Counted from the stretch's first letter, positions 9,762 through 48,095 are shown. The stretch is DNA of 53,227 nt from Candidatus Micrarchaeota archaeon (GCA_018813505.1 JAHJBM010000069.1:1-53227); one strand, 5' to 3'. Translations and numbers: made by a program. The notes: a model not told the origin generated them from the letters alone.

Positions 9762-9928
9762 CGCCTCGGCCGGGGTTCGAACCCGGGTCGCAAGAGTTCC
9801 GTTGCACATATTATGCCTTTTTTGGGCGCTTTTTTTACTAAAAAAGTGCAATGACAGTCTCGTATGCTAACCAGTATGTACCTTGACCAATCGTCTAAGA
9901 TTGATCATAAGTTCTACACTACCGAGGC
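9762..9928 (-). tRNA. tRNA-Asp(GTC) with two introns: 15/16 (9876-9913, 38 nt) and 37/38 (9797-9851, 55 nt)
   Basis: Spliced sequence: GCCTCGG TA GTGT AGACTGGTTA GCAT A CGAGA CTGTCAC TCTTG CGAC CCGGG TTCGAAC CCCGG CCGAGGC G. Clean BHB at 37/38 (CTGT/ACGG, TGCAC/GTGCA). G15:C48 preserved. TATA-like TTTAAAAA about 30 nt upstream. Confidence 0.92.
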
Positions 9929-10085
9929 TAAAAGTATTTTGATTCTGCTGAATTACTTTTTTAAAGCGATCGTTGAAGTCTGTAATTTGTTAAATCTGAT
10001 GGTTTTTATATTTGGCATCATTATCAACGTCAATTTTAATGGACAAAACATCCATTTTTAAATACTTGTTGACACATAACATTTC

Positions 10086-10949
10086 ATGTGGAAGGGACGC
10101 CAATCAATTTTACATTCTAAACTCGATAACTTTAATCTGGCCGTTGCAAAGCCATTGTCTAATACAGCATTACCGATGTTGGAAACCATTCTACTTGCAG
10201 ATCGCAAGGGCGCTATATTATTGCCAAACAACCTGTTCGATAAATTGAGGGCACAAGGAAAAACTAATGATGGAAAAAAATACTGGACTGGTACATTAAC
10301 TGCTCATAGTAAGCTAACTTGCGGCGTATTTGATTCTGATGAACTATCATCTGAACATAATTCTACCATTGTCTTTGGTATCCCACCAAATTTCATTGGA
10401 AAAGCAGGGATAATTACAGTGAATCATGGGGATTTTACAGTCGTATTGTATGAAGGAACCTATTACATTCTTCCACGTGGAAGTACCCACCAACCATATA
10501 CGCGCAACCCATATACGCGCAACCCATATACCTACGATCCAAATCCCTATCAATTAATTCCTATGAATGCAATTGGTGACACGAAATGTTTGATGGTTCA
10601 TGCTGCCTCAGGCATTCCAATGAATCCACGGTTTCTTGACTGGTTAGGTGATACTATTGGTTCAAAAAAGTTAACTCTGCAGTATGCTTCCAGTGTTTCA
10701 CTTGTCTTGCGAGAAAATGATGAAATTGTTATTGGTGCAAAAAAAAGCCAACTAGCTGACGCATTCATCTATCCAGCTGCCAATGAAACAAATTTCGAAG
10801 ACGTAATTCCAAAGTGGCTGGAACAAGGAATTGGTAGGAATCTAAAGGTTATAATCCAAGAATTATGTGGTTTTAGTGAAACTTTAAAAATCGCTATAGA
10901 TGAAATTATCAGAAGAACTGAATTACATGGCTCTCCTTTCAGAGATTAA
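10086..10949 (+). CDS. Hypothetical protein with an internal PYTRN tandem repeat
   Basis: 287-aa ORF; TATA-like TTTTTAAATA about 25 nt upstream. Confidence 0.7.
   Translation: MWKGRQSILHSKLDNFNLAVAKPLSNTALPMLETILLADRKGAILLPNNLFDKLRAQGKTNDGKKYWTGTLTAHSKLTCGVFDSDELSSEHNSTIVFGIPPNFIGKAGIITVNHGDFTVVLYEGTYYILPRGSTHQPYTRNPYTRNPYTYDPNPYQLIPMNAIGDTKCLMVHAASGIPMNPRFLDWLGDTIGSKKLTLQYASSVSLVLRENDEIVIGAKKSQLADAFIYPAANETNFEDVIPKWLEQGIGRNLKVIIQELCGFSETLKIAIDEIIRRTELHGSPFRD
10494..10531 (+). repeat. 15-bp in-frame tandem repeat CCATATACGCGCAAC x2.5
   Basis: Exact copies at 10494-10508 and 10509-10523, partial copy at 10524-10531. Confidence 0.9.
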
Positions 10950-11051
10950 TAATTGACCTGATTCTTCAAATTTTCAATCAATTCGCAATCATCAACTATT
11001 TTACATCTGAATTGAAACTAATTAATAAATGTCCTATATAAACCATCCTCT

Positions 11052-11948
11052 ATGATCGATCTTCATGCCCATACAAATGCCTCAGATGGCAGGTTGTCTC
11101 TTGAAGAACTTGTGGCACAGGCAGAAAATGCCGGGTTGAAGGCAATTGCAATTACTGATCATGATACCATCCAAAATGCAAAGCGAATAAAAGAGATTAA
11201 AATCTCGAAATCCAATCTAGGAATAGAATTAATCCCAGGAATAGAAATTTCTGTTTATGATTACGAATTGAATTATGTGGAATTACATATTCTTGGTCTT
11301 TTCATTGATACTGAAAATCAAAAGCTTAATTCAAAGCTCAAAGACCTGGAAAAACAAAGAATTGATCAGAAAAAGGCTACAATTCAGAAATTAAATGAAC
11401 TTGGGTATGGAATAACTTTTGAAGAAATTGTGGCTCAGGCAAAAGGCTCAGTGAGCAGAGTTCATATTGCGAGAGTTTTGATGGAAAAATATCCAAACAA
11501 ATTCAAATCTGTTCCTGATGCATTTTTCAAGTTGCTTGACAAAGGAAAACCTGCATTTGTTTCTCGTAAAGTCTCATTCAAACTTAAAGATACAATCGAT
11601 CTTATTCATGAAGCGAGAGGTTTAGCAATATTATGCCATCCTGGGTTTTTTGATGGAGACAAAAACAAATTATTTCAAGATTTCAAAAAGCTTGGCGGTG
11701 ATGGGGTAGAATCTGTTTATGATTATGTTGCCAACGCTGCATCACGCAAAGTAAATTCTGGCGATAATGAAAAGTTTGCAAAAGAATTCCTCAAGATCGC
11801 CAAAGAAATGAGTTTTCTTGAAAGTGGGGGTTCTGATTTTCATGGTCCAAATAAAGGTTCGAAACTTGGGGAATTGGATGTGCCAGATAAATTTCTAGAG
11901 AAAATGAAAGAACATATGAAAGAAAATATGGAAGAAAAGAAGAAATGA
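11052..11948 (+). CDS. PHP-domain phosphoesterase (TrpH/YciV-like)
   Basis: DLHAHTNASDG, AITDHDT, GIEIS, HILGL, CHP and GGSDFHG motifs. Confidence 0.92.
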   Translation: MIDLHAHTNASDGRLSLEELVAQAENAGLKAIAITDHDTIQNAKRIKEIKISKSNLGIELIPGIEISVYDYELNYVELHILGLFIDTENQKLNSKLKDLEKQRIDQKKATIQKLNELGYGITFEEIVAQAKGSVSRVHIARVLMEKYPNKFKSVPDAFFKLLDKGKPAFVSRKVSFKLKDTIDLIHEARGLAILCHPGFFDGDKNKLFQDFKKLGGDGVESVYDYVANAASRKVNSGDNEKFAKEFLKIAKEMSFLESGGSDFHGPNKGSKLGELDVPDKFLEKMKEHMKENMEEKKK

Positions 11949-12009
11949 GGACATACAAAAAAGAAATCCTTTTAAGCACCTTTCATACATTACTATTAAC
12001 TGGTTCTTT

Positions 12010-13566
12010 ATGACGAAGATTAGCCGAGCGCTGGTCAGCGTCTACGATAAAAGCAATATCGCAGAGCTGGTGCGCTTTCTCTCTGAAAATGGTGTTGAGA
12101 TATTATCAACCGGTGGTACTGCCAGATTACTTTCAAAATCAGGAATAAAAGTTACTGAAGTATCTGATTTTACAAAATCGCCTGAAATGATGGATGGCAG
12201 GGTCAAAACCATTCATCCGAAAATCCATGGCGGTATTCTTGCCGATCGTTCAAACAAGGAACACATGAAACAGGCAGAAATTCATGCCATGAAAATGATT
12301 GATCTGGTTATCGTGAATCTTTATCCTTTTGAACAGGCCGTGTTAGGGGGCAAATCACATGAAGAAATCATTGAGAATATCGATATTGGTGGCCCTACGC
12401 TTCTGCGTTCTGCTGCAAAAAACTACAAAAGTGTTGCAGTAGTCACGAATCCCAACAGATACCGAACCATCATGGATGAAATTTCAAAGAGTGGAAAAAT
12501 ATCCGACAAAACGCGTCAAACACTTGCAATTGAGGCATGGGAACATGTTGCACATTATGATGTCGTTATAGAAAAATATTTCAGAAAGACATTTGGAAAT
12601 GTTTTTGATTATCCTGAAAACATGAATCTCACTTTCAAAAAGAAACAGGATCTTCGTTATGGTGAAAATCCTCATCAGACTAGCGCATTCTATGTAGATC
12701 GACACGATGGCGAACCGTCAATCACAACAGCGGAACAACTTCAGGGTAAGCTGTTATCATATAACAACATTCTCGATGGTAATTCTGCACTAGAGCTTAT
12801 CAAAGAATTTGATGAGGATCCAACTGCAGTCGTAGTAAAACACAACAATCCATCTGGTGTGGCTTCTCACAACGAAATCCTCGAGGCATACAAACTTGCA
12901 CGTTCTGTTGATCCAGAAGCTGCCTTTGGCGGTGTGGTATGTATCAATCGCGAGGTGGATGAAATTCTTGCTCAAGAAATCTCGTCAAAGTTTGTTGAAA
13001 TGGTAATTGCTCCATCATTTACTGATGCTGCAATAAAGACATTTGCAAAAAAGAAAAATGTTCGTTTGCTTAAGGTTGAAGGTATCACAAAAAAACGCAA
13101 ACCATATCGGGAGTATCGTTCTGTAGTTGGGGGGTTACTTGTTCAGGATGGTAATGTCAAATTGCATGATGGCACTTTCAATATCGTGACGAAAAGAAAA
13201 CCTACGGAAGAAGAAATGCTGGCCATGAAATATGCCTGGAAAGTATGCAAGTACGTCAAATCAAATTCAATAGTTTATGCAAGGTCAACGCGTGTTGTTG
13301 GCATAGGTGCGGGCCAGATGAAACGTGTTGATGCTGCCAGGTTAGCAGCAGAAATCGCAGCTGATTTTGGCCTTGATCTCAAGGGATGTGCCATGGCTTC
13401 TGATGCGTTCTTCCCGTTTCGTGATGGTGTTGATGCAGCGGCAAAACGAGGTATTACTACAGTTATTCAGCCAGGTGGTTCAATACGCGATCAGGAAATA
13501 ATTGATGCGTGCAATGAAAATGGCATGGTAATGGTTTTCACTGGCATAAGACATTTCAGACATTAA
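12010..13566 (+). CDS. purH: Bifunctional AICAR transformylase/IMP cyclohydrolase
   Basis: RALVSVYDK, STGGT, GRVKTIHP, IDIGGPT, LRYGENPHQ, SDAFFPFRD, IQPGGSIRD and RHFRH motifs. Confidence 0.97.
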   Translation: MTKISRALVSVYDKSNIAELVRFLSENGVEILSTGGTARLLSKSGIKVTEVSDFTKSPEMMDGRVKTIHPKIHGGILADRSNKEHMKQAEIHAMKMIDLVIVNLYPFEQAVLGGKSHEEIIENIDIGGPTLLRSAAKNYKSVAVVTNPNRYRTIMDEISKSGKISDKTRQTLAIEAWEHVAHYDVVIEKYFRKTFGNVFDYPENMNLTFKKKQDLRYGENPHQTSAFYVDRHDGEPSITTAEQLQGKLLSYNNILDGNSALELIKEFDEDPTAVVVKHNNPSGVASHNEILEAYKLARSVDPEAAFGGVVCINREVDEILAQEISSKFVEMVIAPSFTDAAIKTFAKKKNVRLLKVEGITKKRKPYREYRSVVGGLLVQDGNVKLHDGTFNIVTKRKPTEEEMLAMKYAWKVCKYVKSNSIVYARSTRVVGIGAGQMKRVDAARLAAEIAADFGLDLKGCAMASDAFFPFRDGVDAAAKRGITTVIQPGGSIRDQEIIDACNENGMVMVFTGIRHFRH

Positions 13567-13579
13567 TTTCTGTGATTCT

Positions 13580-13987
13580 ATGCCATCTATATTTGCCAAA
13601 CCCTCAAATCTTCTCTCTAAAGAGGGTGAACGTGTTGCTGCGGAAAAAAAGGCACTCCGTCCTTTATTATGGGTAGTTCCTACCAGTGTAATGGTTGCAG
13701 GTATCTATACATCTCATTGTGATATGATTTCGTCCATAGAACAATCCCGTGCATCTGATTTGAGAAAACTCAAAGCAAATGAAGCTGGGAGCGAGCCAGA
13801 TGATATTCAGCTTGCTACTGTACAAGTCAATTTACGATACGATTCTCTTGTTTCTGAAGCTGAGTTCAAGGCAGGTACTGGCACTGCAATGATTGTTGCA
13901 ATGTGCCTTGTTCTGATTTACTATGCAGATAAACTGTTGTTTGCCAAACGTTCTAGCGATTACATCAATAAGATTATTAGGAAATGA
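13580..13987 (+). CDS. Hypothetical membrane protein (two hydrophobic segments)
   Basis: 135-aa ORF directly after purH. Confidence 0.6.
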   Translation: MPSIFAKPSNLLSKEGERVAAEKKALRPLLWVVPTSVMVAGIYTSHCDMISSIEQSRASDLRKLKANEAGSEPDDIQLATVQVNLRYDSLVSEAEFKAGTGTAMIVAMCLVLIYYADKLLFAKRSSDYINKIIRK

Positions 13988-14003
13988 GTTTATCTCGAAT
14001 TAT

Positions 14004-14993
14004 TCAAAGTACTTTTGCATATCTTTCAGCCAGATCAACATACTTTTCAATTCTTTTTTTCGCTTCGTTGTTTGGATGTTGCGAATATTCTATTGCTGCA
14101 ATTTTTGCCCTTACATTTGCTCTATAGCATTTGTACAAGTTTAAAAGTGTTCTGAGTTCCGTATCTTTTGTTTTGGAAATATATTCATCAACAAAAATTT
14201 CAGAAAGTTCATATCTTCCAAAGGCATCAAGATCCATAGCCATGAAAGCGATTTCGCTTGCCACATCAATATATCTGAAATCTTTACTGAACTCAATACA
14301 ATCAAAAATAACTGTCCTGTCTTCTAAAACAAAAATATTTGCAGAATGCAGATCACCGTGACAGTCCTTTATCCTTCCATGTTTCTGTCGTTTATCAAAT
14401 ATGTCTGCATTCTCATTTATGAATTTACCAGATCTCTCAAGTATCAAATCAACCTTCTTTCCGAATTCGCAGGATTTCTCTATCACTTCCCTGAAATTTC
14501 CAAGGTCATCTATCTGGTTTTTTACTGTCATTGAAGATCCATATCCTGGATCATTTATCGTTTCTACTTTGCTATGGAAATCTGCTATGATAGTTGCTAT
14601 TTCAACTATTTTTTCTTTTTCCAAATTATTATTTATGAGAAGTATGTCCATTCTTTTTTCCTGAGGTAGTCTCTTCATTTTTACTGCATATTCAACTATA
14701 TCGCCTGATTGTTCTATCGCCATGCCATCATTCGTTGATACTATCGGCACAACCTCAATGTATACCTCTGGTGAAAGCCTTTTGTTGAGCCTGACTTCCT
14801 CTTCACACAAATTCTTTCTCTTTTCAAGTGTTGAGAAATCAAGAAATGAAAATTTTAATGGTTTCTTTATCTTATATACCTCATCACTGCCTAAAAGTAT
14901 CCATGATATGTGGGTTTCTATGAGTTCAAACTGCATTTTTTCTGCAAGTGCATTTATATCTTCACCATTCATTTTTTCCACCAATGAATTCAT
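14004..14993 (-). CDS. APH/kinase-like fold protein (COG2187-type; N-terminal half of Rv2004c-like proteins)
   Basis: IETHISW, YKIKKP, FLDFSTLEKR, EEVRLNKRLSP, CHGDLH, FDCIEF and YRANVRAKI motifs. Confidence 0.88.
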   Translation of the reverse strand: MNSLVEKMNGEDINALAEKMQFELIETHISWILLGSDEVYKIKKPLKFSFLDFSTLEKRKNLCEEEVRLNKRLSPEVYIEVVPIVSTNDGMAIEQSGDIVEYAVKMKRLPQEKRMDILLINNNLEKEKIVEIATIIADFHSKVETINDPGYGSSMTVKNQIDDLGNFREVIEKSCEFGKKVDLILERSGKFINENADIFDKRQKHGRIKDCHGDLHSANIFVLEDRTVIFDCIEFSKDFRYIDVASEIAFMAMDLDAFGRYELSEIFVDEYISKTKDTELRTLLNLYKCYRANVRAKIAAIEYSQHPNNEAKKRIEKYVDLAERYAKVL

Positions 14994-15465
14994 TTACTAT
15001 TGCAACTCTTTTCTTTAGCGGCAACAGCATATCTATTGTGAGATGCCTGCCTTCTATCGGTTCAAATATGTCCCTTAGTTTGAGATAAACATTATAATCT
15101 GCATCACTCACGTTGGATTTTCTCCTCTTTAATCTTTGTTCTATCTCTTTTTCAGGAAGGGTACAAAGGACGAAGTAATATTTTTCTCCAAGTGATTCTG
15201 CAGTGCTTGACATCATATTCCTATATTGATTTTGATAAAATGTGGCATCAAGTATCACAATTTTTCCTTTGGCAAGATAATCTCTTGTTTCTTTCTTAAG
15301 TCTGGAGTATACCTGGGTTTTTTCTTCAATTGTATATGTCGGGTTTGGGAACATTTTTTTCCTTACAATATCGCTGTTTATATGGATCCCATCAATTTTT
15401 TTTGCAAGTTCTTTTGAAAAAGAACTCTTGCCAGTGCCGGGTAATCCGCAAACTAAAATCAGCAT
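14962..15465 (-). CDS. AAA_33 P-loop kinase (COG0645-type)
   Basis: CGLPGTGKS Walker A, SDIVRK, VILDATF, RLKRR...SDAD; overlaps the downstream APH-like gene. Confidence 0.88.
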   Translation of the reverse strand: MLILVCGLPGTGKSSFSKELAKKIDGIHINSDIVRKKMFPNPTYTIEEKTQVYSRLKKETRDYLAKGKIVILDATFYQNQYRNMMSSTAESLGEKYYFVLCTLPEKEIEQRLKRRKSNVSDADYNVYLKLRDIFEPIEGRHLTIDMLLPLKKRVAIVNEFIGGKNEW

Positions 15466-15855
15466 TATTCCTATCTGTTCTATCTAATTTATAATTCTCG
15501 CTGGAATGGTTGTTATAATAAAGAGATTAATATGGTGTTCTATCTCTTGTTTTTTGGTTTTCTGTTACAGAAGAGAAAGTCGTATTAAGTATAATCTAAT
15601 GGTTTTACTTTCTCTTCGGAGAAATTAGCAAGTTTTTTATATGGCCGTATATTTCTCGTCGAAGATTTTTCTTCTTTTTAAATATTTTTGTCTATTTTTT
15701 TATCTCGGTACTACGACGTAAAAGTCTATCAGACGTTAAGATCACCTGTTTAAATCCTTCCTATACATCCAGCTAACACATATTCTTCTGATCTGGTATG
15801 TTGGATTTGGAAGATATGTTTGAACTTGGAATATATGATGTTTTTTGGTGGTATT

Positions 15856-15927
15856 ATGAGCGACGATGATATGGAAGATGAAGATGAATTCGATGAAGAA
15901 GATGGGGAAGAAGACGAAGAATTATAA
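15856..15927 (+). CDS. Possible 23-aa highly acidic peptide MSDDDMEDEDEFDEEDGEEDEEL
   Basis: GGTGG SD-like sequence just before the ATG and strongly biased Asp/Glu codons. May be the frameshifted 3' half of a gene starting at 15798. Confidence 0.35.
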   Translation: MSDDDMEDEDEFDEEDGEEDEEL

Positions 15928-15964
15928 CTGACGTCTTTTTTTATCTTTTCATTGTTAAATTCTC

Positions 15965-16957
15965 ATGGACTCTAAACTGTTATTTATTCTTTTATGTTTT
16001 ATTTTTTTTGTTGGTTGTGTTGGTAATAATCCTATTCCCTCTGATGCCGATTCTCCTGCTATTGATACGCCTATCGTGCCGTTCAGTGTTGACAGAGAAT
16101 CAAAAATACCTCTAAACGCAGTGAAAATGCTGCCAGCGGATGATTTTTATCCGCCCCAGCTTCATTCAGATCAATGGGAAGAACCAGAGCCTCTTTCCTA
16201 TCCTATAAATACTAGGGGTGCAGAGGATTCGCCTTTTGTCATGCCAGATGGAAATACTATTTATGTTTGGTTTACTCCAAACAATAGGATGGACATATCT
16301 GAGCAAGTCCAAGATGAGGTGACTGGAATTTACAAGTTTGGAAAACAAGAAGATGGTAGCTGGAGCGATGCAGAACGGATTTGGCTTGTTGAACCAGGAA
16401 AACCGCATTTAGATGGATGTGGGTTTTTTCAAGACAATAAAGTTTGGATCTGTGGTGCAAGAGAAGGTTATACTGGGCTTCATTGGTTCACATCTGAATT
16501 TAGCAATGGTAAATGGTCTATCGCAGAAATTTCAGACTTTAATCCTGATTATGAGGTTGGAGAACTGCACATTTCAAATGATGGCAATGAGCTTTATTAT
16601 CATTCTCCAAGGGCTGGTGGTAAAGGTGGGTATGATCTTTGGATGAGCAAAAAGATGGATGGGGAATGGCAGGAACCAACAAAACTCGAAATCCTAAACA
16701 CAGAACAGACTGAAGGATGGCCATACCTTAGCCAGGATGGCTCAGAACTTTGGTTTACGCGCGTTTACATGGGAAGTCCTGCAATCTATCGTTCGATAAG
16801 AGGGACCGATGACGAATGGCAGGAACCTGAGCTTATACTTTCACAATTCGCAGGTGAGCCGACTTTAGATAATGATGGCAACATATATTTCACCCATCAT
16901 TTCTATGAAAACGGGACTATGATTGAAGCTGATATTTACGTTGCAATGAAAAAGTAG
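15965..16957 (+). CDS. Lipoprotein with PD40/TolB-like beta-propeller repeats
   Basis: FVGC lipobox-like motif; repeated blades SPFVMPDGNTIYV, LHISNDGNELYY, PYLSQDGSELWF and PTLDNDGNIYF. Confidence 0.85.
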   Translation: MDSKLLFILLCFIFFVGCVGNNPIPSDADSPAIDTPIVPFSVDRESKIPLNAVKMLPADDFYPPQLHSDQWEEPEPLSYPINTRGAEDSPFVMPDGNTIYVWFTPNNRMDISEQVQDEVTGIYKFGKQEDGSWSDAERIWLVEPGKPHLDGCGFFQDNKVWICGAREGYTGLHWFTSEFSNGKWSIAEISDFNPDYEVGELHISNDGNELYYHSPRAGGKGGYDLWMSKKMDGEWQEPTKLEILNTEQTEGWPYLSQDGSELWFTRVYMGSPAIYRSIRGTDDEWQEPELILSQFAGEPTLDNDGNIYFTHHFYENGTMIEADIYVAMKK

Positions 16958-16958
16958 A

Positions 16959-17957
16959 TTATGATCTCTGAACAGCATCTACGAATGGATTCGGGACATG
17001 TTCGTTCAATATAGTTAATATCGAATAATCCTTTATAATATCAGGAAATCTCTTTCTTATTTCATTTATGATCCTATGTACATCACGCACATTCACTGTA
17101 TCAAAATCCACTTCCAGATCCCATTCACCGACGTTCCTATTCAAATATGCCGAGTTTGGATGCTGCACGCAGTATTCTATGAATTCTTTTTCTTTATCTT
17201 CTGTTATATGTTTCAGCCAAAAAAGAATCTTGTATCTTGTATATCCGAATTTTTCCGGATCATAATAAGCTCCAAAAAAACTAATCACTCCGTTGCGCAG
17301 CAGATTCTTTATCCTGTATTGTACTGCGTCCGGGGAGATGCCTAATCTGGTTGCGATTGTCACCGTGCTGGTTCTGGAATTTTCAAACAATTCCCTCATT
17401 ATTCCTTTGTCCAACTCATCAACATCCTCGGTTTTTTCTTCTAATGTTTGCATTCTTGTTGTTCCACGATAACCCGTAAGATAATTAAGAGGAAGGTAGC
17501 CCTGCTGTATGGTTATCGCGATATTCTTTGATTTCATGCAATCTCCGAATCTTTTTGTTAACTCATCGATCTCTTTTTTAAATTCAATTTCATCACGTAG
17601 CGAGTATCTCATTATATAATCCCAGTTTCCTTCCAGTGCAGCAAACCATTGGCCTTTCGGGTGCTTTTTGAGATACGCAATAAACTCATTTTCCTTTTCA
17701 GAGGAAATATTCTCCATCTTCAAATAAAGCCGGTAAGTTTTTAGGCCAAGCTTTGCAAGGTTTGGTTCTGCAAACATCCTGAGAATAATGCCGGATTGAA
17801 TAAGCTTGTTGATCCGGTATTCCACCGTGTTGCTCTTTAGTCTCACTTTTTTTCCTATTTCTGTATAAGATTGCCTGGAATTCTCCTCGAGTTCGTGCAT
17901 TATCTGCCTGTCTTTCTTATCGAGTTTTATCTCTGTTCTTTCTTTTATCTTTTCCAT
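16959..17957 (-). CDS. Tandem-duplicated Lrp/AsnC-family regulator
   Basis: Two HTH-RAM units (LDKKDRQIMHELEENSRQSYTEIG...GNWDY; VDELDKGIMRELFENSRTSTVTIA...GEWDL). Confidence 0.9.
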   Translation of the reverse strand: MEKIKERTEIKLDKKDRQIMHELEENSRQSYTEIGKKVRLKSNTVEYRINKLIQSGIILRMFAEPNLAKLGLKTYRLYLKMENISSEKENEFIAYLKKHPKGQWFAALEGNWDYIMRYSLRDEIEFKKEIDELTKRFGDCMKSKNIAITIQQGYLPLNYLTGYRGTTRMQTLEEKTEDVDELDKGIMRELFENSRTSTVTIATRLGISPDAVQYRIKNLLRNGVISFFGAYYDPEKFGYTRYKILFWLKHITEDKEKEFIEYCVQHPNSAYLNRNVGEWDLEVDFDTVNVRDVHRIINEIRKRFPDIIKDYSILTILNEHVPNPFVDAVQRS

Positions 17958-18077
17958 ATATCAATATTTTACGCTATTTTAATATAAATATATCGGAAAT
18001 TTACAAAAAAACTTCTAAAACATATTAAATATCAGTTAATTACATATCCCTCTATAAAATAACACGAAGGTGGAAAA

Positions 18078-18650
18078 ATGACCATGAATGCAAATATTGA
18101 ACTACCAGAAACTCATCTACATAATACTAAACATGCCCGGGGTAAGTCTTTTAACCGGTTCAGGTTGATAAATTCTATTTTTAGTTCAGAGACATCATCA
18201 GATGTTCAAGCCAGTGTTTTACTAAAAGAAATCCAGGGTATGCAGTTAACAGTTGCGAACAGTCGTAGCTTAACGCGCGCGGTACACGAATTAAGTAATT
18301 TTGGTGATCGCAAAGTAAATCCATATACTTTATTGTCTCTATTATCTCCAAAACAATTTTATGTTATGGCGTTATATTCTGATGGTTTATTTGCAACTTA
18401 CGTTTCAGAATTTATTGCATTTAAAGAATTTAAGCATATCCCTGTAGTTCATCCAGCAAGAATAGCTACTCATGCAATATCTGAACAGATTGCTTTTCAT
18501 ATTTTACTCTTTATTGACTTAACTGATAAAGAGTTAACCTCCATCATAAAAAAGTCGAAACACGAAAGTGTACGTGAAGCTGCAACTAAACTTTTAAGTC
18601 TGGGGCTTTTTACGAATACTGAAAACCCTAAACACGAAACCAATAAATAG
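18078..18650 (+). CDS. Hypothetical protein
   Basis: 190-aa ORF with GGTGG SD-like sequence before the ATG. The last codons overlap a 7-nt-periodic tract. Confidence 0.65.
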   Translation: MTMNANIELPETHLHNTKHARGKSFNRFRLINSIFSSETSSDVQASVLLKEIQGMQLTVANSRSLTRAVHELSNFGDRKVNPYTLLSLLSPKQFYVMALYSDGLFATYVSEFIAFKEFKHIPVVHPARIATHAISEQIAFHILLFIDLTDKELTSIIKKSKHESVREAATKLLSLGLFTNTENPKHETNK

Positions 18651-18660
18651 AAAAAGAAAT

Positions 18661-18881
18661 TCCCGCCTACCTGATTTATTCCACTGTTTTTCAACAGCCC
18701 CTTTTTGGGCCGCCTTTTTGGTAAAAAGGCGGAATTGAACAAGTAACCTGCCGGTATCTACTGGATTCCCAGTATTGAAACTCGTAAAAACGAGTAAACC
18801 ATAACTACAGCCGGCCGCTCTACCGTTGCACGCCCTGAATACAAATCTTGAATACAATTCAAGGCTTTGAGCTAAGGCGGG
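18661..18881 (-). tRNA. tRNA-Tyr(GTA) with three introns: 15/16 (18826-18866, 41 nt), 37/38 (18756-18804, 49 nt) and T-loop 58/59 (about 18676-18734, 59 nt)
   Basis: Spliced sequence: CCCGCCT TA GCTC AACGGTA GAGC G GCCGG CTGTAGA CCGGC AGGTT ACTTG TTCAAAT CAGGT AGGCGGG A. C1:G72 and A73 are archaeal Tyr identity elements; A15:U48. TTTATAA box at 18910-18916. T-loop junction is +/-1 nt. Confidence 0.9.
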
Positions 18882-18965
18882 ATTAATATGAATTCATGGG
18901 TCGAACTGCTTATAAATCTAACATTGATCTTCCTCAACAATTGGGATTAAAGTTTTAAATCCTCT

Positions 18966-19670
18966 ATGAGCACTAGCTTCATGCAATCATTATCCAATGG
19001 AAGATCCAAAGAACAGATAATTCATCGTCCAAAAACATTTTCCACCCAGGTCGAATTATTTAAAAAAATCGCTAAAAGCACGTGGATTGCCCTTCCTGAC
19101 AAGGATGTCGTCAAACAACATTCAAAAATTAATAAATTCGATTCACTTGCAGAAATACTGAAGAATGAAGTTAGTTCTTTATCAATGAACGATGTTCAAA
19201 AACCAGAAACGCAGGTTAACGATCGCATCATATCAATCACTGTTTTCATGTATCTTGTTGATTCAGTGCTTGAGATGCACCCTTTGGTAATGGGGAGAAA
19301 TAAGGTCGGTTTATATGCATTGTTTAATTCTGTTTGTGATTCCATATATACATTCCTTACTGATGGATACTTTGAAAAATCAACCTCTGAAATTGTGTAC
19401 GAATTTCATAAAATAGAGCCTCGTTTTGTTGCATGTGCTAATCTTGTGGAGCTTGAAGTAATTCCTGTACATGAAGCAGTTGGTATTTATCAAAGTACTC
19501 TTGCCGAACTTATTACATTGGTGCAAAAGGACAAAACATCAGGTAAAAAATCCAAGTCTAAAAAACCCCCAGCGAAAAAATCCGTCAAGGCAAAACCTAC
19601 AAATCACAAATCTGCCAATTTAAGCAAGTCCAAAATCAAGCGATCAAAACGTTCGAAAAAGAGAAGATGA
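18966..19670 (+). CDS. Hypothetical protein with a Lys/Ser/Arg-rich basic C-terminal tail
   Basis: 234-aa ORF ending KKSKSKKPPAKK...KRSKRSKKRR. Confidence 0.7.
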   Translation: MSTSFMQSLSNGRSKEQIIHRPKTFSTQVELFKKIAKSTWIALPDKDVVKQHSKINKFDSLAEILKNEVSSLSMNDVQKPETQVNDRIISITVFMYLVDSVLEMHPLVMGRNKVGLYALFNSVCDSIYTFLTDGYFEKSTSEIVYEFHKIEPRFVACANLVELEVIPVHEAVGIYQSTLAELITLVQKDKTSGKKSKSKKPPAKKSVKAKPTNHKSANLSKSKIKRSKRSKKRR

Positions 19671-19710
19671 TTATTATTCGATGCTAGAGAATCCAATTAT
19701 CTTTTTCTTT

Positions 19711-20967
19711 CTACTCAATTGGAATACCTGCACTCGCAGAAGCAGTTTTCAAATGCTCTGCTCTTTTCCCACCACTCGGGAATAGCGAGTTTGGGGTAAC
19801 TGTTTCTTTATCCGAATGTGGATGGCTTATATATGTGTTTCTTCTTGCCATTACTTGATGCCCATGCGTTTGATTATCTGGCGTATTTGTACTTGCGTTG
19901 TTTAGTGTTGATGGTTGTGCTAATTGCTCAGTGATCATATTCATTTTGACAGGGTTATCTGAGGTGTTTGTTTGCATAGTTACATTATCTGCGTTCTTTA
20001 CTATTTCGGTTAATCCGGAATGGCTGTGTCTTCCACATCTTCTATGTCCAACATGCGAATTACTGCTGTTGGTATGCATTGCGCCATGTTTTGTATGGTG
20101 CAAGATTTTTATTACATGGTGCGATGCTCCTGGTTTTTGTATTTCCACCGTTTCATTAGTTTGAATATCGGTTATCATTACAACTATATTTGGGGTGGGT
20201 TGGGTATTGGCTGTCATTATGGCTGCATTTAGAGTTTTTTTTATTAGTATATCAATATTTACAGGTAAAACTTCCTGTGATTGGTTTAATCCTATATCTT
20301 CAATTATTGGAGCAACTTGGCCACGTAGTCCAGGGTTGCTTATTTCAATTCTGTTTGTTGCACTTACCTCATTCAATTGTTGTGTTTGTGGTTGGTGCGT
20401 ATTTTGTGCTGATGTTTCTTCTGTCTTTATTTCGTTCGCTAAATGAACAGAGCCACCATGCCACTTGTCTGGGTGATGGCAATTATGTTTGACTTGAGTT
20501 GTTGTGGATTGTGTGTTCATCACCGTATGGTGGTTTTTTCTCCTTTTTAATAAAACATCTATCAGATTCCCATTAACTATACTAGTAGGATGATTAGATA
20601 ACTCTCTCTCGATCATTGGAGTTGTTTTTCCATGTCGCATAAAAAAATTATGATCTCTTCCATGTGCCGCTCTGTCAGCACCAAGTCCCCTTCTTTTTGT
20701 CTTGCAATAAAGAAATCCACTTCGACCAAATAATGTCATTGGTCCGCCCCACGGAGATCTGAACATGAGATAAGCGGGCAATCTTCTGTATTTTGCATAT
20801 TGTTGGCCTCTATATTTCAATTGTTCTTGGTGTTTGCAAGCCATTCCTGGGGGGTGTGAAGCCATACCTTCGGCTAGTGGTTCGGCATTTGGTTTATTTA
20901 CAACTTCGATAGGGCCTGAAAACTTCGTCGTTACTTTGTTTCCAGTCCTATGACTAAGCCTCGTCAT
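19711..20967 (-). CDS. Orphan low-complexity His/Asn/Thr-rich protein
   Basis: 418-aa ORF. The opposite strand has only short ORFs. TTTTAAATA lies about 25 nt upstream of the ATG (leaderless-type). Confidence 0.55.
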   Translation of the reverse strand: MTRLSHRTGNKVTTKFSGPIEVVNKPNAEPLAEGMASHPPGMACKHQEQLKYRGQQYAKYRRLPAYLMFRSPWGGPMTLFGRSGFLYCKTKRRGLGADRAAHGRDHNFFMRHGKTTPMIERELSNHPTSIVNGNLIDVLLKRRKNHHTVMNTQSTTTQVKHNCHHPDKWHGGSVHLANEIKTEETSAQNTHQPQTQQLNEVSATNRIEISNPGLRGQVAPIIEDIGLNQSQEVLPVNIDILIKKTLNAAIMTANTQPTPNIVVMITDIQTNETVEIQKPGASHHVIKILHHTKHGAMHTNSSNSHVGHRRCGRHSHSGLTEIVKNADNVTMQTNTSDNPVKMNMITEQLAQPSTLNNASTNTPDNQTHGHQVMARRNTYISHPHSDKETVTPNSLFPSGGKRAEHLKTASASAGIPIE

Positions 20968-21044
20968 CTGGGTGAGTAAGTATTAGTTAACTATTTAAAA
21001 GTTCCGAATACCAGTACGTCATCAGTCTTAATGGAGATTAGTGG

Positions 21045-22364
21045 TTAATCATGTTTTGTTAGATATTCTCCACAAAAAAGTAAAAATTCATTTATCCTTT
21101 CAGATGGTATGGCTGCACCGGCAGCTATCTTATGGCCTCCGCCAACTCCCCCGAATTCCAAAGCACTTTTTTTCATCAAATCCCCAAGATTAAGCCCTTT
21201 TGAAATCAAATCTTTTGTGGCGCGAGATGAGATCTTAATTGTGTTTTTATCTCCTGAAGATATCCCAATTATGGGCACTCCCCATTTTTGTCTTAGTGCC
21301 ATCCCGCATATGGTTCCTATAATTCCCTCGTCTATCACATTCCTTGCATCAAGGAAATAAAATTTTCCCAGGTTAAATGCATGTGATGATGCATATTCTA
21401 TCCCGTTCCTGAGCATTTTCCTGTGCAATCTAAGTAGTTCTCTTGCTTCTATATATGCATCCTGGTCTTGAAGACAAACTTTCAGTCCTATATCTGGTCT
21501 TGAATGTCTTCCACAGGCATTGAGAAGGGTGCTGAATTCATTTGCCTCATAAGTCTCGTTCATTGGTCGCTTTGGAAATATGTGGCTTTCACCAATGAGT
21601 TCGTTTGCCTTTTTCAGTTGATTTGCATCAACAAGTATCTTTGCAAGTGCACTTATCAAAAGTGTTTTCTCATCTTTTTTAAGATCAGAATATGTTCTCT
21701 TTTTTCCATTATGCTCAAGTGGTATCCCGAGTTTTTTTAGCATGTCTTCTGCTTTTTCTTCTCTATATGAAATACCTGGTATATATGGAGAATCAGAATA
21801 AGCAAGAAATTGCACTAAGGTCCTGCAATACCTTCCATAAAATGAGATTTCATTTTCAGTCTTAATTTCACCCTCAGTTTCTCCTTCTGCCAGTACAATT
21901 CTATTCATTCCACAAAGAGGCCATTGCATGTCTCCGACAGCACCCACAATTGCAAGATCTGGATGTTCTCTGAAAACCAGATAAGCCGTACCGGATGCGC
22001 TGAGTTCATCGCTTCCATCAATACCATGTAACATTGGATTTGCCTGTGGTTTTTCAATGCCATCGGTCTGGTGATGATCAATGATTATTACATCATTCAA
22101 TTCGTTTACCCGTTTGTTGCCTCCGCCTAAATCAACAAAAACCAATTCCTTCTCGCGCGCGTATTTTTCGATCGCATCATCGTCAAGTTTCTTGATGCAC
22201 TCGTTTCGGTATTTTTTCCCTTTTTTGACAAATGAACTAATAACTATAGCACCAGAACTAAGGCCGTCCGCATCATAATGGTGCACTATCAGCGGATTAT
22301 TGAATGAAAATGCGATTTTTTGGATTTCTTTGCATCTATCGAGAAATACGTTTTCTTCTCCCAT
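21045..22364 (-). CDS. RecJ-like DHH/DHHA1 phosphoesterase
   Basis: HHYDADG, FVDLG, IIDHH, GAVGD, EFSTLLNACGR and GGGHKIAAGA motifs. ATG 22364 chosen over GTG 22373. Confidence 0.92.
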   Translation of the reverse strand: MGEENVFLDRCKEIQKIAFSFNNPLIVHHYDADGLSSGAIVISSFVKKGKKYRNECIKKLDDDAIEKYAREKELVFVDLGGGNKRVNELNDVIIIDHHQTDGIEKPQANPMLHGIDGSDELSASGTAYLVFREHPDLAIVGAVGDMQWPLCGMNRIVLAEGETEGEIKTENEISFYGRYCRTLVQFLAYSDSPYIPGISYREEKAEDMLKKLGIPLEHNGKKRTYSDLKKDEKTLLISALAKILVDANQLKKANELIGESHIFPKRPMNETYEANEFSTLLNACGRHSRPDIGLKVCLQDQDAYIEARELLRLHRKMLRNGIEYASSHAFNLGKFYFLDARNVIDEGIIGTICGMALRQKWGVPIIGISSGDKNTIKISSRATKDLISKGLNLGDLMKKSALEFGGVGGGHKIAAGAAIPSERINEFLLFCGEYLTKHD

Positions 22365-22554
22365 AAACTCCACACAACCGGCTCTGTAAAAATGCCCTCT
22401 TCTGGAGCTTGCCGCACTAGTCTTATATAATACTTACAGACGTGCTTTAGGTGCATATTGTCGAACAACATGCATCAACAGACCATGTTTTCTAAGGATT
22501 TCTACAAGCCACACAACCGATAATTATATAACCAATCTCATTTAATTCTTGGTC

Positions 22555-23037
22555 ATGATTGTCCAAATTATTATGGCGTTGGTTCAGATCTTTATTGCAA
22601 TTGTTTTATCTGCAGGTGCTCTTTACACTGGCATTAGTATGCTTGATCGTCTTACTCCTAATATTGACGAATGGAAGGAAATTAAGAAAGGAAACCTTGC
22701 TGTTGGAGTGTTTTACACTGCAGTTATGGTTTCACTGATAATTCTTGTTGCGCCCTCTATATCTGATCTGTTGGGGTATCTTGTAATGCCTTTACAAGTT
22801 GTTGCTTTGCTATTATCATTTCTGAATTATATTATTACATTAATTATCGGAATCGTGGTCATATATTTTTCGATTCACGTTGTGGACAAACTGACCTATG
22901 ATCTTGATGAGATGGAACAACTGAAAAAAGGAAATGTTGCAATAGCGCTTATCATGTCAGCAGCTGTTCTTGCAATAACATATACGGTTACATTCCCGCT
23001 CTTATATCTGCTCACTCTTCTGAAGTCTGTTTTTTGA
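22555..23037 (+). CDS. DUF350-family membrane protein (duplicated domain)
   Basis: Two copies of D(R/K)LT..xDE..(EI/QL)KKGN(L/V)A(V/I) followed by TM helices. Confidence 0.85.
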   Translation: MIVQIIMALVQIFIAIVLSAGALYTGISMLDRLTPNIDEWKEIKKGNLAVGVFYTAVMVSLIILVAPSISDLLGYLVMPLQVVALLLSFLNYIITLIIGIVVIYFSIHVVDKLTYDLDEMEQLKKGNVAIALIMSAAVLAITYTVTFPLLYLLTLLKSVF

Positions 23038-23854
23038 TTTTTTTCTTTTCTAAATATTCTAGTTTTCCAAACCATTTTTTGGCATCTTCAGGTGTTTCTC
23101 TTGTCTCAAATTTCAAGCTAGATAAGTCTATTAACATCTTTGCATCCTTGATATCCATTATCCTATTTTTCCTGTCAAAACTAAGTCGATAAATCTTTCC
23201 TTGTTTAGCATAAACGAGATCCCCGGAATAATCCCATTCTGCCCAATCTAGTCTACCAAGCGAAATCTTTTCTTGTGAATTGATATCTACTATTCTGTAG
23301 TCTGCCATTTCGTTTATCAGTTCGTACTTGTGATTTTTAACTTGATTTCTCTTTCTTATCGTATATTGATTTTCTATAACCCAACCGTCTCTGACTAATC
23401 TTGATTTATTCTTCTGACTCCAACCACACTCAATCTTAATTTTTTTAGGTATTGAACCTTCTGCAAGTTTCATCTCATTTGGTCTATGGGTTATTATTAC
23501 TATATTTTCGTTTTTGAAAAGTCCTCCACCCCCCCAACAATCTCCCTTTGGCCACAATGCCAATGCTGTTAAAAACGGGGGTCTGCTTACGGCAGTCCAT
23601 GTATCATATTTTCCTTTAAATTTTCCAGCAAAATATAATAGTTTGTCTCCCATGGGTGACAAATCACATGCTTCAGGATATATTCTTCCCTTCAACCATT
23701 GACCAATATAGAATTCATCAGAATTTGTTTTCCAATAAATCAAAAGAACTTGCTTGGATGGACCTCTGCGAAAAATAACTGCTACTGGAACTTTTCTTGC
23801 AAGAATTGCATAAAGACTAACACTTGACTTTGATATGTCTTTTTTTGTTTTCAT
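23012..23854 (-). CDS. Conserved-looking hypothetical protein, Trp/Gly-rich, possibly a beta-propeller
   Basis: VAVIFRRGPS, GQWLKGRIY..CDLSP.G, WTAVSRPP..TALALW and WGGGG. Start moved to ATG 23854 to avoid overlap with proS. Confidence 0.7.
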   Translation of the reverse strand: MKTKKDISKSSVSLYAILARKVPVAVIFRRGPSKQVLLIYWKTNSDEFYIGQWLKGRIYPEACDLSPMGDKLLYFAGKFKGKYDTWTAVSRPPFLTALALWPKGDCWGGGGLFKNENIVIITHRPNEMKLAEGSIPKKIKIECGWSQKNKSRLVRDGWVIENQYTIRKRNQVKNHKYELINEMADYRIVDINSQEKISLGRLDWAEWDYSGDLVYAKQGKIYRLSFDRKNRIMDIKDAKMLIDLSSLKFETRETPEDAKKWFGKLEYLEKKKIKKQTSEE

Positions 23855-23927
23855 TATTTTGTTTTCAACATCTGTTTTTAAAAATCTTTTAACTCTATTG
23901 ATAAACTCTACAATTGAGGTATTATTT

Positions 23928-25370: not shown

Positions 25371-25493
25371 TCTCTGGGTTGTATCTTGCAAAAGCTTCTG
25401 TTAATCTGTCTATTATCTTTTTCTTCTTTTGTTAATAAAAATCAAAAACATCGGATTTATAATAATATTGTGTCAAACTATAACTGATCATGT

Positions 25494-26399: not shown

Positions 26400-26404
26400 G
26401 AATA

Positions 26405-26832
26405 TAGCCCCGACCGGATAAACGTTGCGTTTCGAGTTTCCAATTGAAACGATATTTCGTTTCAATGGATGTCATGGTCGACGATTCGACCATGAGCATG
26501 TTCGTAATCGAAACGTCGATTACGACACCATTGAAGCAAGCTTCAATCGGTTCAGTTTCCGGTTTCGTGTCATGAAACACGAGACCTCAAGAACTAAACT
26601 CAAGACCCTAAACGCAATTTCGAACCGGTGTCACAGGATATCTTCAGACCTTTTGATTTCCTCAAGGCTTTTCGCGGGTGTGTTGCCCTAAGTTCTCAGA
26701 GGTCAAAAGGCCCCCAAAGTCCCGTATCCTTGACCAATGTCAAGTCTTTTGACTTTTCTATCTCAGGGCTTTTTAGTGAAGGTTTTTGCCATGAGTTTTT
26801 ATGAGTCAAAAAAGTTCCTAGACGACGGGGCT
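26405..26832 (-). tRNA. tRNA-Gln(TTG), 428-nt gene with three introns: 15/16 (26737-26817, 81 nt), 37/38 (26640-26713, 74 nt) and 59/60 (26419-26618, 200 nt)
   Basis: Spliced sequence: AGCCCCG TC GTCT AGTGGTCAA GGAT A CGGGA CTTTGGA TCCTG TGAC ACCGG TTCGAAT CCGGT CGGGGCT A. A1:U72 is the archaeal Gln signature; G15:C48. BHB at 37/38 (CTTT/GAAG, GGCCTTTTGA/TCAAAAGGTC). The T-loop intron is closed by TTGCGTTT/AAACGCAA. Confidence 0.88.
26443..26586. repeat. Array of five hairpins at about 28-31 nt spacing inside the tRNA-Gln T-loop intron
   Basis: ATTGAAACGA-tatt-TCGTTTCAAT (26443), TCATGGTCGA-cgat-TCGACCATGA (26472), TCGTAATCGA-aacg-TCGATTACGA (26502), ATTGAAG-caag-CTTCAAT (26530), GGTTTCGTGT-catgaa-ACACGAGACC (26561). 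Confidence 0.9.
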
Positions 26833-26983: not shown

Positions 26984-27214
26984 GGGCCCGTAGTCGAAAC
27001 TTTTTTGGGATGCCTAAAAAGTTTCATCAAAAAGGCATCAATTTCGACAATGGTTAAGATGTCCGCCTCACAGAAACTTTTTAGTAAAAAGTTTCCAATT
27101 GAAATGCGCACATTTCAATGGACCATTGAAACATTAGTTTCAATTGGTCATCAAAAACCTGCTGAAAAGTTTTGCGAACGCGGAAGATTCGCGGTTCAAT
27201 TCCGCGCGGGCCCA
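26984..27214 (+). tRNA. tRNA-Val(CAC) with two introns: 15/16 (26999-27050, 52 nt) and 37/38 (27073-27178, 106 nt)
   Basis: Spliced sequence: GGGCCCG TA GTCG AATGGTTA AGAT G TCCGC CTCACAC GCGGA AGATT CGCGG TTCAATT CCGCG CGGGCCC A. GTCG/CGAC central helix at 15/16; A15:U48. Divergent from tRNA-Gln. Confidence 0.9.
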
Positions 27215-27225
27215 AAAATTCCTTT

Positions 27226-47001: not shown

Positions 47002-47058
47002 GGTAAAATCTCCAAAGAGCCAAGTTTTAATAATTTTGCCGGTTTATTCAAAACGGGG

Positions 47059-47451
47059 ATGAATGTGAAAGGTCAGCTTAGTATTGAATATCTTCTGGTA
47101 TCTACAGTTGCGATCCTTCTTATTTTGGTATCGCTTGCTGCGCTTATAGGGGTAAAGGATTATTCTGATAGTGCTATGAAAGTACATACACTCAAATCTT
47201 CTGCTATCTCATTAAATACTGCGATAAACGAAGTTTGCGCTCTTGGCAACGGTAATGGGAGGGTGATCCAACTCACGACCAATCTTTCCATAGATTGTGA
47301 ATATGCTGATGAAGAATGGGTCGTTTCTTTTTATGATCCTGAAAATTCAATTATCCATTCTAGTCATTGTGAAGTAAAAACAGCAAAAAACTTAAACGGG
47401 CTAGTCTATATTCAGAATGAAAAGGGAATAATAAAAATTACTGAGAGGTAG
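47059..47451 (+). CDS. Class III signal peptide (archaeal type IV pilin-like) protein
   Basis: KGQLSIEYLL followed by a hydrophobic helix. Confidence 0.85.
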   Translation: MNVKGQLSIEYLLVSTVAILLILVSLAALIGVKDYSDSAMKVHTLKSSAISLNTAINEVCALGNGNGRVIQLTTNLSIDCEYADEEWVVSFYDPENSIIHSSHCEVKTAKNLNGLVYIQNEKGIIKITER

Positions 47452-47477
47452 GTCATTTTTGGGAATTTTCCTGCCAA

Positions 47478-47762
47478 TTAGACTACTGTGATTTTTCCGA
47501 ATTTACCAAGCGTAAGCTGCGGAGTTCCTTGCCATTCGTTTACATAACCGTTTTCTATTTTTACCTTATCCCCTTCTTTTACCTGATCTATAGTATCGTT
47601 CCATAGTGTGAGTGTTATGGATCCGCTGTCATCCTTTACGGTGACATTTGCAACTCTTAATTTTCTTCCGTATTTGTTTATCTCACGTGTTGCTTCAACC
47701 GAGGCTATTTCAGCTTCAAGATTTACACTTCCAGTACCAACTTTCAATTCACTAATTTTCAT
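47478..47762 (-). CDS. ssb: Single-OB-fold ssDNA-binding protein (SSB/RPA-like)
   Basis: MKISELK...DDSGSITLTLWND...GDKVKIENGYVNEWQGTPQLTLGKFG. Confidence 0.9.
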   Translation of the reverse strand: MKISELKVGTGSVNLEAEIASVEATREINKYGRKLRVANVTVKDDSGSITLTLWNDTIDQVKEGDKVKIENGYVNEWQGTPQLTLGKFGKITVV

Positions 47763-47846
47763 TTTATACATCTCCAAATCTTATAATTTTTGATGGTTCC
47801 GAAACACGGAACTCATCAGGACCCGAAATGCGGGCATAAATAAAAA

Positions 47847-48095
47847 AGCCTCCGGAGGGAAAAACAGCGTTCCGAGTTTCCCGTTCCGAGTTTTGATGTG
47901 GTTTAACAAAACTGGAAACCCGAGACCGAAAACGCTTTTGAACCCCCAACTTCCTCCTATCCAGTTCTATGTCTTGGGTCTCGAAATTCGGAACCCTAAA
48001 CAGGAAACTACAAGAGAGGCACTCTGCCGTTACTCGTCTTTTTAGCAAACCTGTTTTGGGTGTGCTTTACAAAAAGTACATTGAGTTACGGAGGC
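47847..48095 (-). tRNA. tRNA-Thr(TGT) with three introns: 15/16 (48030-48080, 51 nt), 37/38 (47959-48008, 50 nt) and 59/60 (47861-47936, 76 nt)
   Basis: Spliced sequence: GCCTCCG TA ACTC AACGGCA GAGT G CCTCT CTTGTAA GGAGG AAGTT GGGGG TTCAAAT CCCTC CGGAGGC T. U73 and A15:U48. ACTC/GAGT central helix at 15/16. TTTAAAAA box about 30 nt upstream. Confidence 0.9.

Follow-up and report, generated by a model that had tools for sequence, protein, structure and literature searches.

Multiple introns in five tRNA genes of a Candidatus Micrarchaeota genome, with recurrent use of the D-loop site 15/16

A 53,227-nucleotide (nt) stretch of DNA from a Candidatus Micrarchaeota archaeon, an ultrasmall organism of groundwater (GCA_018813505.1, JAHJBM010000069.1:1-53227; analyzed at full length and referred to below as the window) carries five transfer RNA (tRNA) genes, for Asp, Tyr, Gln, Val, and Thr, which are interrupted by 2, 3, 3, 2, and 3 introns, respectively, or 13 in total. 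All five genes have one intron in the D-loop, between tRNA positions 15 and 16, and another in the anticodon loop at 37/38, and those for Tyr, Gln, and Thr have a third intron in the T-loop. These are very probably working tRNA genes whose introns are spliced by proteins, with 15/16 acting as a favored landing site of intron families that were gained and lost repeatedly rather than in a single sweep. In kind the genes are ordinary for their lineage, but they are extreme in degree, as both the intron load and the recurrent use of 15/16 are unusual.

Five interrupted tRNA genes

Standard searches overlooked these genes. Default ARAGORN reported no tRNA in the window, Rfam reported none at gathering scores, and nothing meaningful appeared in the window at E values up to 10. 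The genome as a whole (1.54 Mb in 95 contigs, 91% complete) yielded only 6 matches to the Rfam tRNA model. When ARAGORN was run with introns permitted, it reported 12 tRNAs, in one of which the Asp gene of the window was mistaken for Leu. A finder of our own, which takes the acceptor stem as its anchor and allows the D-, anticodon, and T-loops to be long, recovered four of the window genes, while the Gln gene was located by eye. Once the introns had been removed by script, default ARAGORN read a full-length tRNA with the expected anticodon from each of the five. The finder and these readings together bear out the inventory given by the initial annotation, which had been made from the sequence alone and listed the same five genes and 13 introns, with 15/16 and 37/38 occupied throughout and the T-loop in three. 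The features are listed below; gene ranges comprise positions 1 to 72, and position 73 lies one base outside each range.

9763..9928, minus strand: tRNA-Asp(GTC); discriminator at 9762; two introns; spliced form read as tRNA-Asp by ARAGORN
9874..9913, minus strand: Asp D-loop intron at 15/16, 40 nt; positions 10 to 13 pair 4/4 with ACAT; inner helix of 4 base pairs (bp); junction set by intron-less orthologues
9797..9851, minus strand: Asp anticodon-loop intron at 37/38, 55 nt; strict bulge-helix-bulge with central helix 4/4 and flanking helices of 5 bp each; predicted loop found in orthologues without the intron
18662..18881, minus strand: tRNA-Tyr(GTA); three introns; spliced form read by ARAGORN
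18826..18866, minus strand: Tyr D-loop intron at 15/16, 41 nt; central helix 3/4, inner helix 9 bp; spliced D-loop identical to that of 18 intron-less orthologues
18756..18804, minus strand: Tyr anticodon-loop intron at 37/38, 49 nt; intron here in every orthologue examined
18675..18733, minus strand: Tyr T-loop intron at 59/60 or 58/59, 59 nt; cut ambiguous by one base
26406..26832, minus strand: tRNA-Gln(TTG), 427 nt; three introns; located by eye; spliced form read by ARAGORN
26737..26817, minus strand: Gln D-loop intron at 15/16, 81 nt; central helix 3/4
26640..26713, minus strand: Gln anticodon-loop intron at 37/38, 74 nt; central helix 4/4; predicted loop found in orthologues without the intron
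26419..26618, minus strand: Gln T-loop intron at 59/60, 200 nt; nested palindromic hairpins; inner helix 8 bp, T-stem as outer helix, central helix 2/4
26984..27213, plus strand: tRNA-Val(CAC); two introns; spliced form read by ARAGORN
26999..27050, plus strand: Val D-loop intron at 15/16, 52 nt; cut can shift by one A with the product unchanged; central helix 4/4, no inner helix directly adjacent; predicted D-loop found in eight intron-less Val(CAC) orthologues
27073..27178, plus strand: Val anticodon-loop intron at 37/38, 106 nt; nested palindromic hairpins; central helix 3/4, inner helix 13 bp, outer helix 5 bp; predicted loop found in orthologues without the intron
47848..48095, minus strand: tRNA-Thr(TGT); three introns; spliced form read by ARAGORN
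48030..48080, minus strand: Thr D-loop intron at 15/16, 51 nt; central helix 4/4; same 7-nt D-loop in one intron-less orthologue
47959..48008, minus strand: Thr anticodon-loop intron at 37/38, 50 nt; central helix 3/4, flanking helices of 3 and 5 bp
47861..47936, minus strand: Thr T-loop intron at 59/60, 76 nt; inner helix 7 bp, T-stem as outer helix, central helix 2/4; spliced T-loop identical to that of the orthologues

The palindromic hairpins nested in the two long introns (26419-26618 and 27073-27178) measure about 30 nt and have arms of the form ...ATTGAAAC.../...GTTTCAAT.... They recur in other introns of the genome (Gly GCC, Gly CCC, and Pro TGG), at intergenic spots, and on contig 65 at about 14240-14400, and they look like a small mobile repeat that enlarges introns.

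Splice junctions, splicing motif, and enzymes

The junctions were compared with orthologues taken from 40 related genomes, 24 of them of the same genus, which were annotated with the same finder. D-loops of uninterrupted orthologues are identical to the predicted spliced D-loops for Tyr, Val, and Thr, and for Asp and Gln they agree in length and first residues. Likewise, uninterrupted anticodon loops (Asp, Val, and Gln) and T-loops (Thr and Gln) agree with the predictions, and the orthologues display clean presence or absence at the predicted intron borders. The 3' cut of the Asp D-loop intron lies 2 nt downstream of the one initially annotated; intron-less Asp orthologues read AGTGG... in the D-loop. 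For the T-loop intron of Tyr, 59/60 ranks first by its flanking helices, and 58/59 offers four of four central pairs and a T-loop of the orthologue type.

In archaeal splicing, each cut lies two nucleotides after the 4-nt strand of a central helix. At 15/16, this strand corresponds to tRNA positions 10 to 13, and its partner is the intron tetramer that ends 2 nt before the 3' cut. In the five window genes, positions 10 to 13 form 18 of 20 pairs at the bulge-helix-bulge register, compared with 3 to 11 of 20 at 16 other registers. As the junctions of these five were set by orthologues, the register test is not circular for them. When all 22 introns at 15/16 in the genome are included, 81 of 88 pairs form at this register versus 18 to 45 of 88 at the 16 others, with the motif itself having helped to pick the cut for some of the additional 17. 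The individual D-loop pairings claimed in the initial annotation are exact in Tyr, Gln, Val, and Thr, but in Asp the partner is ACAT and not GTAC. The motif at 15/16 has no outer helix and represents the relaxed bulge-helix-bulge form. At 37/38, by comparison, all five genes have the strict form (central helix with 3 or 4 of 4 pairs and both flanks), and the 59/60 motif has exact spacing with a central helix of 2 of 4 pairs.

The initial annotation had also used the match between positions 15 and 48 as an internal check on the junctions. This match is present as described (G:C in Asp and Gln; A:T in Tyr, Val, and Thr) and extends to 27 of the 32 class I tRNAs of the genome, failing in 5, but all that follows from it is that the cut does not precede position 15. 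Isoacceptors served as a control: cutting Lys(TTT) at 15/16 yields the same D-loop as cutting Lys(CTT) at 17/17a, and Ser(GGA) cut at 15/16 yields the D-loop of the uninterrupted Ser(TGA). A composite motif score on its own misranked several D-loop cuts, and these were curated by central and inner helices, isoacceptors, and orthologues. The position of the D-arm is less sure for Ala(TGC), Leu(TAA), Leu(GAG), and Arg(CCT).

A splicing endonuclease and a ligase are encoded in the genome. On contig 95, a frame of 394 amino acids (aa) contains the tRNA intron endonuclease domains PF02778 and PF01974 (the latter at 74.6 bits), and its residues 6-394 align with residues 4-387 of the EndA of ARMAN-2 (Candidatus Micrarchaeum acidiphilum; PDB 4fz2) at an E value of 4.2e-127. 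Judged by this end-to-end alignment, the predicted enzyme is of the broad-specificity, three-unit epsilon2 type, as in ARMAN-2. This is in line with the broad-specificity endonuclease that the initial annotation had expected. Its guess of a Micrarchaeota lineage was right as well: almost all of the 80 closest genomic relatives of the endonuclease are labeled Candidatus Micrarchaeota, Micrarchaeia, Bilamarchaeaceae, or Anstonellaceae, with a few other labels among them (Aenigmatarchaeota, "ainarchaeum," "uncultured archaeon," and one Desulfobulbaceae bin). An RtcB-type ligase (PF01139, 490 bits) was found on contig 75. The match (1858-3169) is split over two frames of 458 and 71 aa, which may reflect a frameshift or an assembly error.

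The genome also encodes a second, 176-aa protein of the endonuclease family (contig 28, 17753-18280; locus L002:1258-1788, plus strand). Relative to the M. jannaschii enzyme (PDB 1a79), its catalytic Tyr is replaced by His and its catalytic His by Arg, while the Lys is kept. Of 24 genomes of the genus, 23 contain this paralogue, as do some further genomes of the order, and the protein may serve the epsilon2 enzyme as a structural partner. Elsewhere, contig 15 contains a 238-aa frame with a reverse-transcriptase domain (7529-8005).

A link of the 15/16 introns to archaeosine, for which G15 is the modified site, had also been drawn in the initial annotation. In that form it does not hold: searches of 25 genomes of the genus, namely, this genome and 24 others, revealed no gene of the TGT family (archaeosine or queuine transglycosylase). 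Among 16 genomes of other families of the order, five have a TGT-family gene, and two of those five have a 15/16 intron in tRNA-Tyr; the two features are thus not exclusive.

From the gene models, the orthologue-set junctions, the register of the pairing, and the enzymes, we infer splicing and its order as follows. Each gene would be transcribed as a long precursor of 167 to 428 nt, from which the epsilon2-type endonuclease would release two or three introns by cutting at bulge-helix-bulge motifs, and RtcB would join the exons. At 37/38, the enzyme would encounter a motif of the strict 3-4-3 form, and at 59/60 one with the right spacing and a weak central helix. At 15/16, the 5' strand of the D-stem (positions 10 to 13) would pair with intron nucleotides ending two before the 3' cut, and positions 14 and 15 together with the first intron base would form a bulge that is not followed by an outer helix. 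A relaxed motif such as this would be of the kind cut only by broad-specificity enzymes. After splicing, positions 10 to 13 would be freed and could pair with positions 22 to 25, forming the D-stem.

Intron families, occupancy, and alternative explanations

Genome-wide, 41 tRNA genes were resolved, six of them in two later search passes, and default ARAGORN read full tRNAs from the script-spliced products of all 41 (35 of 35 in the first set and 6 of 6 added). These genes contain 82 introns (2.0 per gene), of which 32 lie in the anticodon loop, 21 in the T-loop, and 29 in the D-loop. Thirty-eight genes (93%) are interrupted, 12 of them by three introns, and 3 genes have no intron. Site 37/38 ranked first in all 29 anticodon-loop introns that were scored, and the T-loop introns lie at 59/60 (18 introns) or 58/59 (3 introns). 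With 22 of the 29 D-loop introns, 15/16 is the commonest noncanonical site of the genome. The other seven are at 17/17a in Lys(CTT), Asn(GTT), Leu(TAG), and Arg(TCT), at 20b/21 in Leu(TAA) and Leu(GAG), and near 18/19 in Ala(TGC). An intron at 15/16 is missing from 19 of the 41 genes, and any D-loop intron is missing from 12: Trp, both Arg(TCG) genes, Ser(CGA), Ser(GCT), Ser(TGA), Thr(CGT), Ile(GAT), Cys, the initiator, Leu(CAG), and Leu(CAA). The full occupancy of 15/16 in the window (5 of 5) overstates the share in the genome (22 of 41). A partial tRNA gene copy at a contig end is not included among the 41.

Both tRNA-Ala genes (contig 76, 7547-7673, and contig 55, 137-329) have a T-loop that begins with TGCGA in place of TTCRA, and their D-loop of 7 nt lacks the GG pair. 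These oddities may represent covariation of the contact between the D-loop and the T-loop.

The introns form families that can be recognized by eye, and these extend across sites. An all-versus-all BLAST of the 82 introns resulted in 54 pairs at E < 1e-3, compared with none after shuffling, and 29 of the 54 pairs connect different sites. Pairwise BLAST was used in place of family classes defined by regular expressions, which were dropped as too strict since they left 59 of the 82 introns unclassified. The largest cluster comprises 10 D-loop, 10 anticodon-loop, and 11 T-loop introns. A second cluster has five members at D-loop sites, all in genes with the D-stem strand GTCT. A copy of this second family (family B, present in Glu, Gln, and Gly D-loops) lies on contig 44 at about 20340-20420, in a stretch that was read as 23S ribosomal RNA (rRNA)-like without an rRNA model. 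Furthermore, over about 110 nt the D-loop introns of Gln(TTG) and Glu(TTC) in this genome share 87% identity. A BLAST of the introns against their own genome returned 113 matches; this search was too insensitive for a census of families, but it led to three more genes and to the rRNA copy.

Among relatives, the D-loop introns are distributed patchily. Within the genus, they are present in 16 of 22 genes for Asp, 4 of 17 for Tyr, 4 of 12 for Val(CAC), and 5 of 6 for Gln(TTG), and in 2 of 4 genomes for Thr(TGT); outside the genus, 0 of 4 genes for Asp and 2 of 7 for Tyr contain them. In relatives, the 15/16 site of the Gln(TTG) and Val(CAC) orthologues is occupied by different intron families. 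The Tyr D-loop intron, by comparison, is recognizably one element that the window shares with four congeners and with two genomes from other families of the order, and its presence across families indicates that it is old. Taken together, the cross-site families, the patchy occupancy, and the replacement of one family by another point to repeated gain, replacement, and loss at a favored site, not to one sweep. The same intron families would be found at 37/38 as well, in the T-loop, and in an rRNA gene, and they would have come and gone repeatedly among the species of the genus. Spread by recombination between tRNA genes with alike D-arms would fit the second cluster and is one candidate route between D-loop sites.

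A more far-reaching version of this explanation, which we put forward tentatively and consider rather unlikely as a whole, regards 15/16 as a lineage-specific hot spot for intron families that encode no protein. The epsilon2 enzyme, perhaps together with the altered 176-aa paralogue, would cut any insert with a tail that pairs with the D-stem, loss of the archaeosine enzyme would have freed position 15, and recombination would have spread the introns, leading to a load above that of the highest cited complete genome.

The initial annotation had read the occupancy of the window as a genome-wide sweep of intron gain at 15/16. Part of this stands, as 15/16 is indeed the commonest noncanonical site and accounts for most D-loop introns. 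The single sweep itself does not, given the 19 genes without such an intron, the patchy congeners, and the unrelated families at orthologous sites. The same observations bear on the idea of one old sweep, in which the introns at 15/16 were gained once in the ancestor of the genus or the order, inherited vertically, and since then only lost or diverged. The identical site in 22 genes and the shared Tyr element in the window, four congeners, and two genomes of other families are what such a history would leave behind. However, it is an improbable one, as Gln(TTG) and Val(CAC) orthologues carry clearly different families at 15/16, the 87% identity between the Gln and Glu(TTC) introns points to recent copying between unrelated tRNAs, and the D-loop intron occurs in none of four Asp genes of other families compared with 16 of 22 in the genus.

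Sequencing data provided some information on transcripts and strains. Thirteen sequencing runs contain the stretch or part of it, including one metatranscriptome in which a small fraction of the sampled words was present. Positions 9500-27500 were compared with two RNA runs and one DNA run, although contigs as short as a mature tRNA would probably be missing from such data. RNA run X13 contained eight short contigs without mismatch. One of these, 166 nt long and with a depth of 4.3, covers 9765-9928 and matches the unspliced Asp gene except for at most 3 nt at either end. This contig fits an end-trimmed, intron-containing precursor, but it may also stem from DNA carry-over or graph breaks. RNA run X17 contained a 78-nt Val-like contig with an uninterrupted D-loop that differs from the window; it may derive from an intron-less gene of a relative and has no bearing on splicing of the window gene. 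One contig of DNA run X3 (depth, 31) replaces 157 nt of the Gln T-loop intron (26439-26595) with 35 other letters, and this is a strain-level difference in intron content.

The apparent accumulation of an end-trimmed Asp precursor would fit end processing before splicing, and together with the interruption of 38 of the 41 resolved genes it could suggest that, as the initial annotation had considered possible, the introns are kept for a benefit to the cell, either by destroying the attachment sites of integrating elements or by ordering maturation, and are not selfish or neutral passengers. The patchy occupancy in close relatives makes it less likely that any single intron is needed, and we regard such a benefit as doubtful.

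Several observations weigh against the preferred reading of five working genes with protein-spliced introns. No spliced read or contig and no exon join across an intron was detected in the two RNA runs and the DNA run over positions 9500-27500, and of the RNA-library contigs just one lies on a tRNA gene, that of Asp in its unspliced form. When the five precursors are folded to minimum free energy, the D-loop helix does not appear in the expected register (0 to 2 of 4 pairs), and the fold of Thr pairs positions 10 to 13 with the true D-stem strand instead. Besides lacking an outer helix, the 15/16 motif has an inner helix of 0 to 2 bp beside the bulge in Val, Thr, and Gln, and a slide of 1 to 2 nt is possible at some cuts (Val, the Asp register, and the Tyr T-loop). 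With respect to the genome-wide set, the finder presumes introns in loops, and introns in stems would escape it; the set is incomplete, with a few anticodons missing. In four genes added late, the cuts at 37/38 and 59/60 were assumed and not scored. For Arg(CCT) (contig 69, 3431-3540), the cuts could not be placed, and its insert of about 35 nt seemingly starts inside the 3' strand of the D-stem.

The lack of spliced RNA, the unspliced state of the sole tRNA-gene contig, and the folds without the D-loop motif would all agree with D-loop inserts that are never removed, so that mature tRNAs keep an enlarged D-loop or the copies are pseudogenes, but this is hardly credible, as the register-specific pairing to positions 10 to 13 (81 of 88 versus 18 to 45 of 88) would be pointless if the insert were kept, inserts of 32 to 121 nt would disrupt the contact between the D-loop and the T-loop, presence and absence in orthologues are clean at the predicted borders, and these are the sole genes for their anticodons in the resolved set. 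Indeed, none of the anticodons among the 41 resolved genes has an intron-free second copy, and the interrupted genes must therefore serve.

Comparison with other intron-rich genomes and implications

In ARMAN-2, 56% of the tRNA genes were reported to be disrupted "at various positions," and its epsilon2 enzyme cuts strict and relaxed motifs in vitro (Fujishima et al. 2011, PMC3239211); the same enzyme was also treated by Hirata et al. 2012 (PMC3488258). The present genome resembles ARMAN-2 in its phylum, its three-unit endonuclease, its noncanonical sites, including 59/60, and the occurrence of more than one intron per gene (PMC3239211). It differs in the share of disrupted genes, which is 38 of 41 here. 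The main text of the ARMAN-2 study gives 59/60 and 53/54 as examples, and the full tally of positions is placed in a supplementary figure (PMC3239211). Beyond the work on ARMAN-2, our literature search found no paper on tRNA intron positions in Micrarchaeota, with the caveat that the string 15/16 itself is not searchable.

Up to three introns per gene have been described in Thermoproteales (Sugahara 2008 and Fujishima 2010, as covered in the reviews PMC4090602 and PMC4033280). Likewise, near-identical introns occur there in unrelated tRNAs at canonical and noncanonical sites, together with a broad-specificity endonuclease (PMC4090602 and PMC4033280). In contrast to the present genome, however, the enzyme is of the (alpha-beta)2 type, and Thermoproteales belong to another phylum. 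The features that mark transposing introns in Thermoproteales were also found here, namely, similar introns across tRNA identities and positions and a presence that varies between close relatives. Among the noncanonical sites listed in one of these reviews (20/21, 22/23, 25/26, 29/30, 30/31, 45/46, 53/54, 56/57, and 59/60, followed by "etc."), 15/16 is not named (PMC4090602).

The highest count cited for a complete genome in the tRNAscan-SE 2.0 paper is 71 introns in 46 genes, with 0.84 introns per gene in Thermoproteales (PMC8450103), compared with 82 introns in 41 genes here. According to a 2026 preprint, some Asgard families have 2.2 intervening sequences per gene, and many of these lie hidden in the D-arm. 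The Asgard genes are similar to those of the present genome in having about two introns per gene, and those missed by annotation are mostly in the D-arm, lie at splicing-motif borders, and were repeatedly gained. They differ in belonging to another phylum and in that the preprint describes no general signal of copying between tRNA genes, whereas families are shared across genes and sites here. One intron in each of three arms of a single gene has also been described for a eukaryotic nuclear tRNA gene, but that is a rare case processed by a eukaryotic enzyme, in contrast to most genes here. With 2.0 introns per gene and 38 of 41 genes interrupted, the present genome is at the top of the range cited in these sources.

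Standard tools recover about one-seventh of the tRNA genes of this genome (6 Rfam matches versus 41 resolved genes), and statements on completeness and codon usage are therefore unreliable for such genomes until they have been searched with introns in mind. The genus supplies a set of D-loop substrates of the relaxed form for the epsilon2 endonuclease, an enzyme of solved structure. It also offers many pairs of presence and absence at one defined site with recognizable intron families and thereby good material for studying how archaeal introns that encode no protein are gained.

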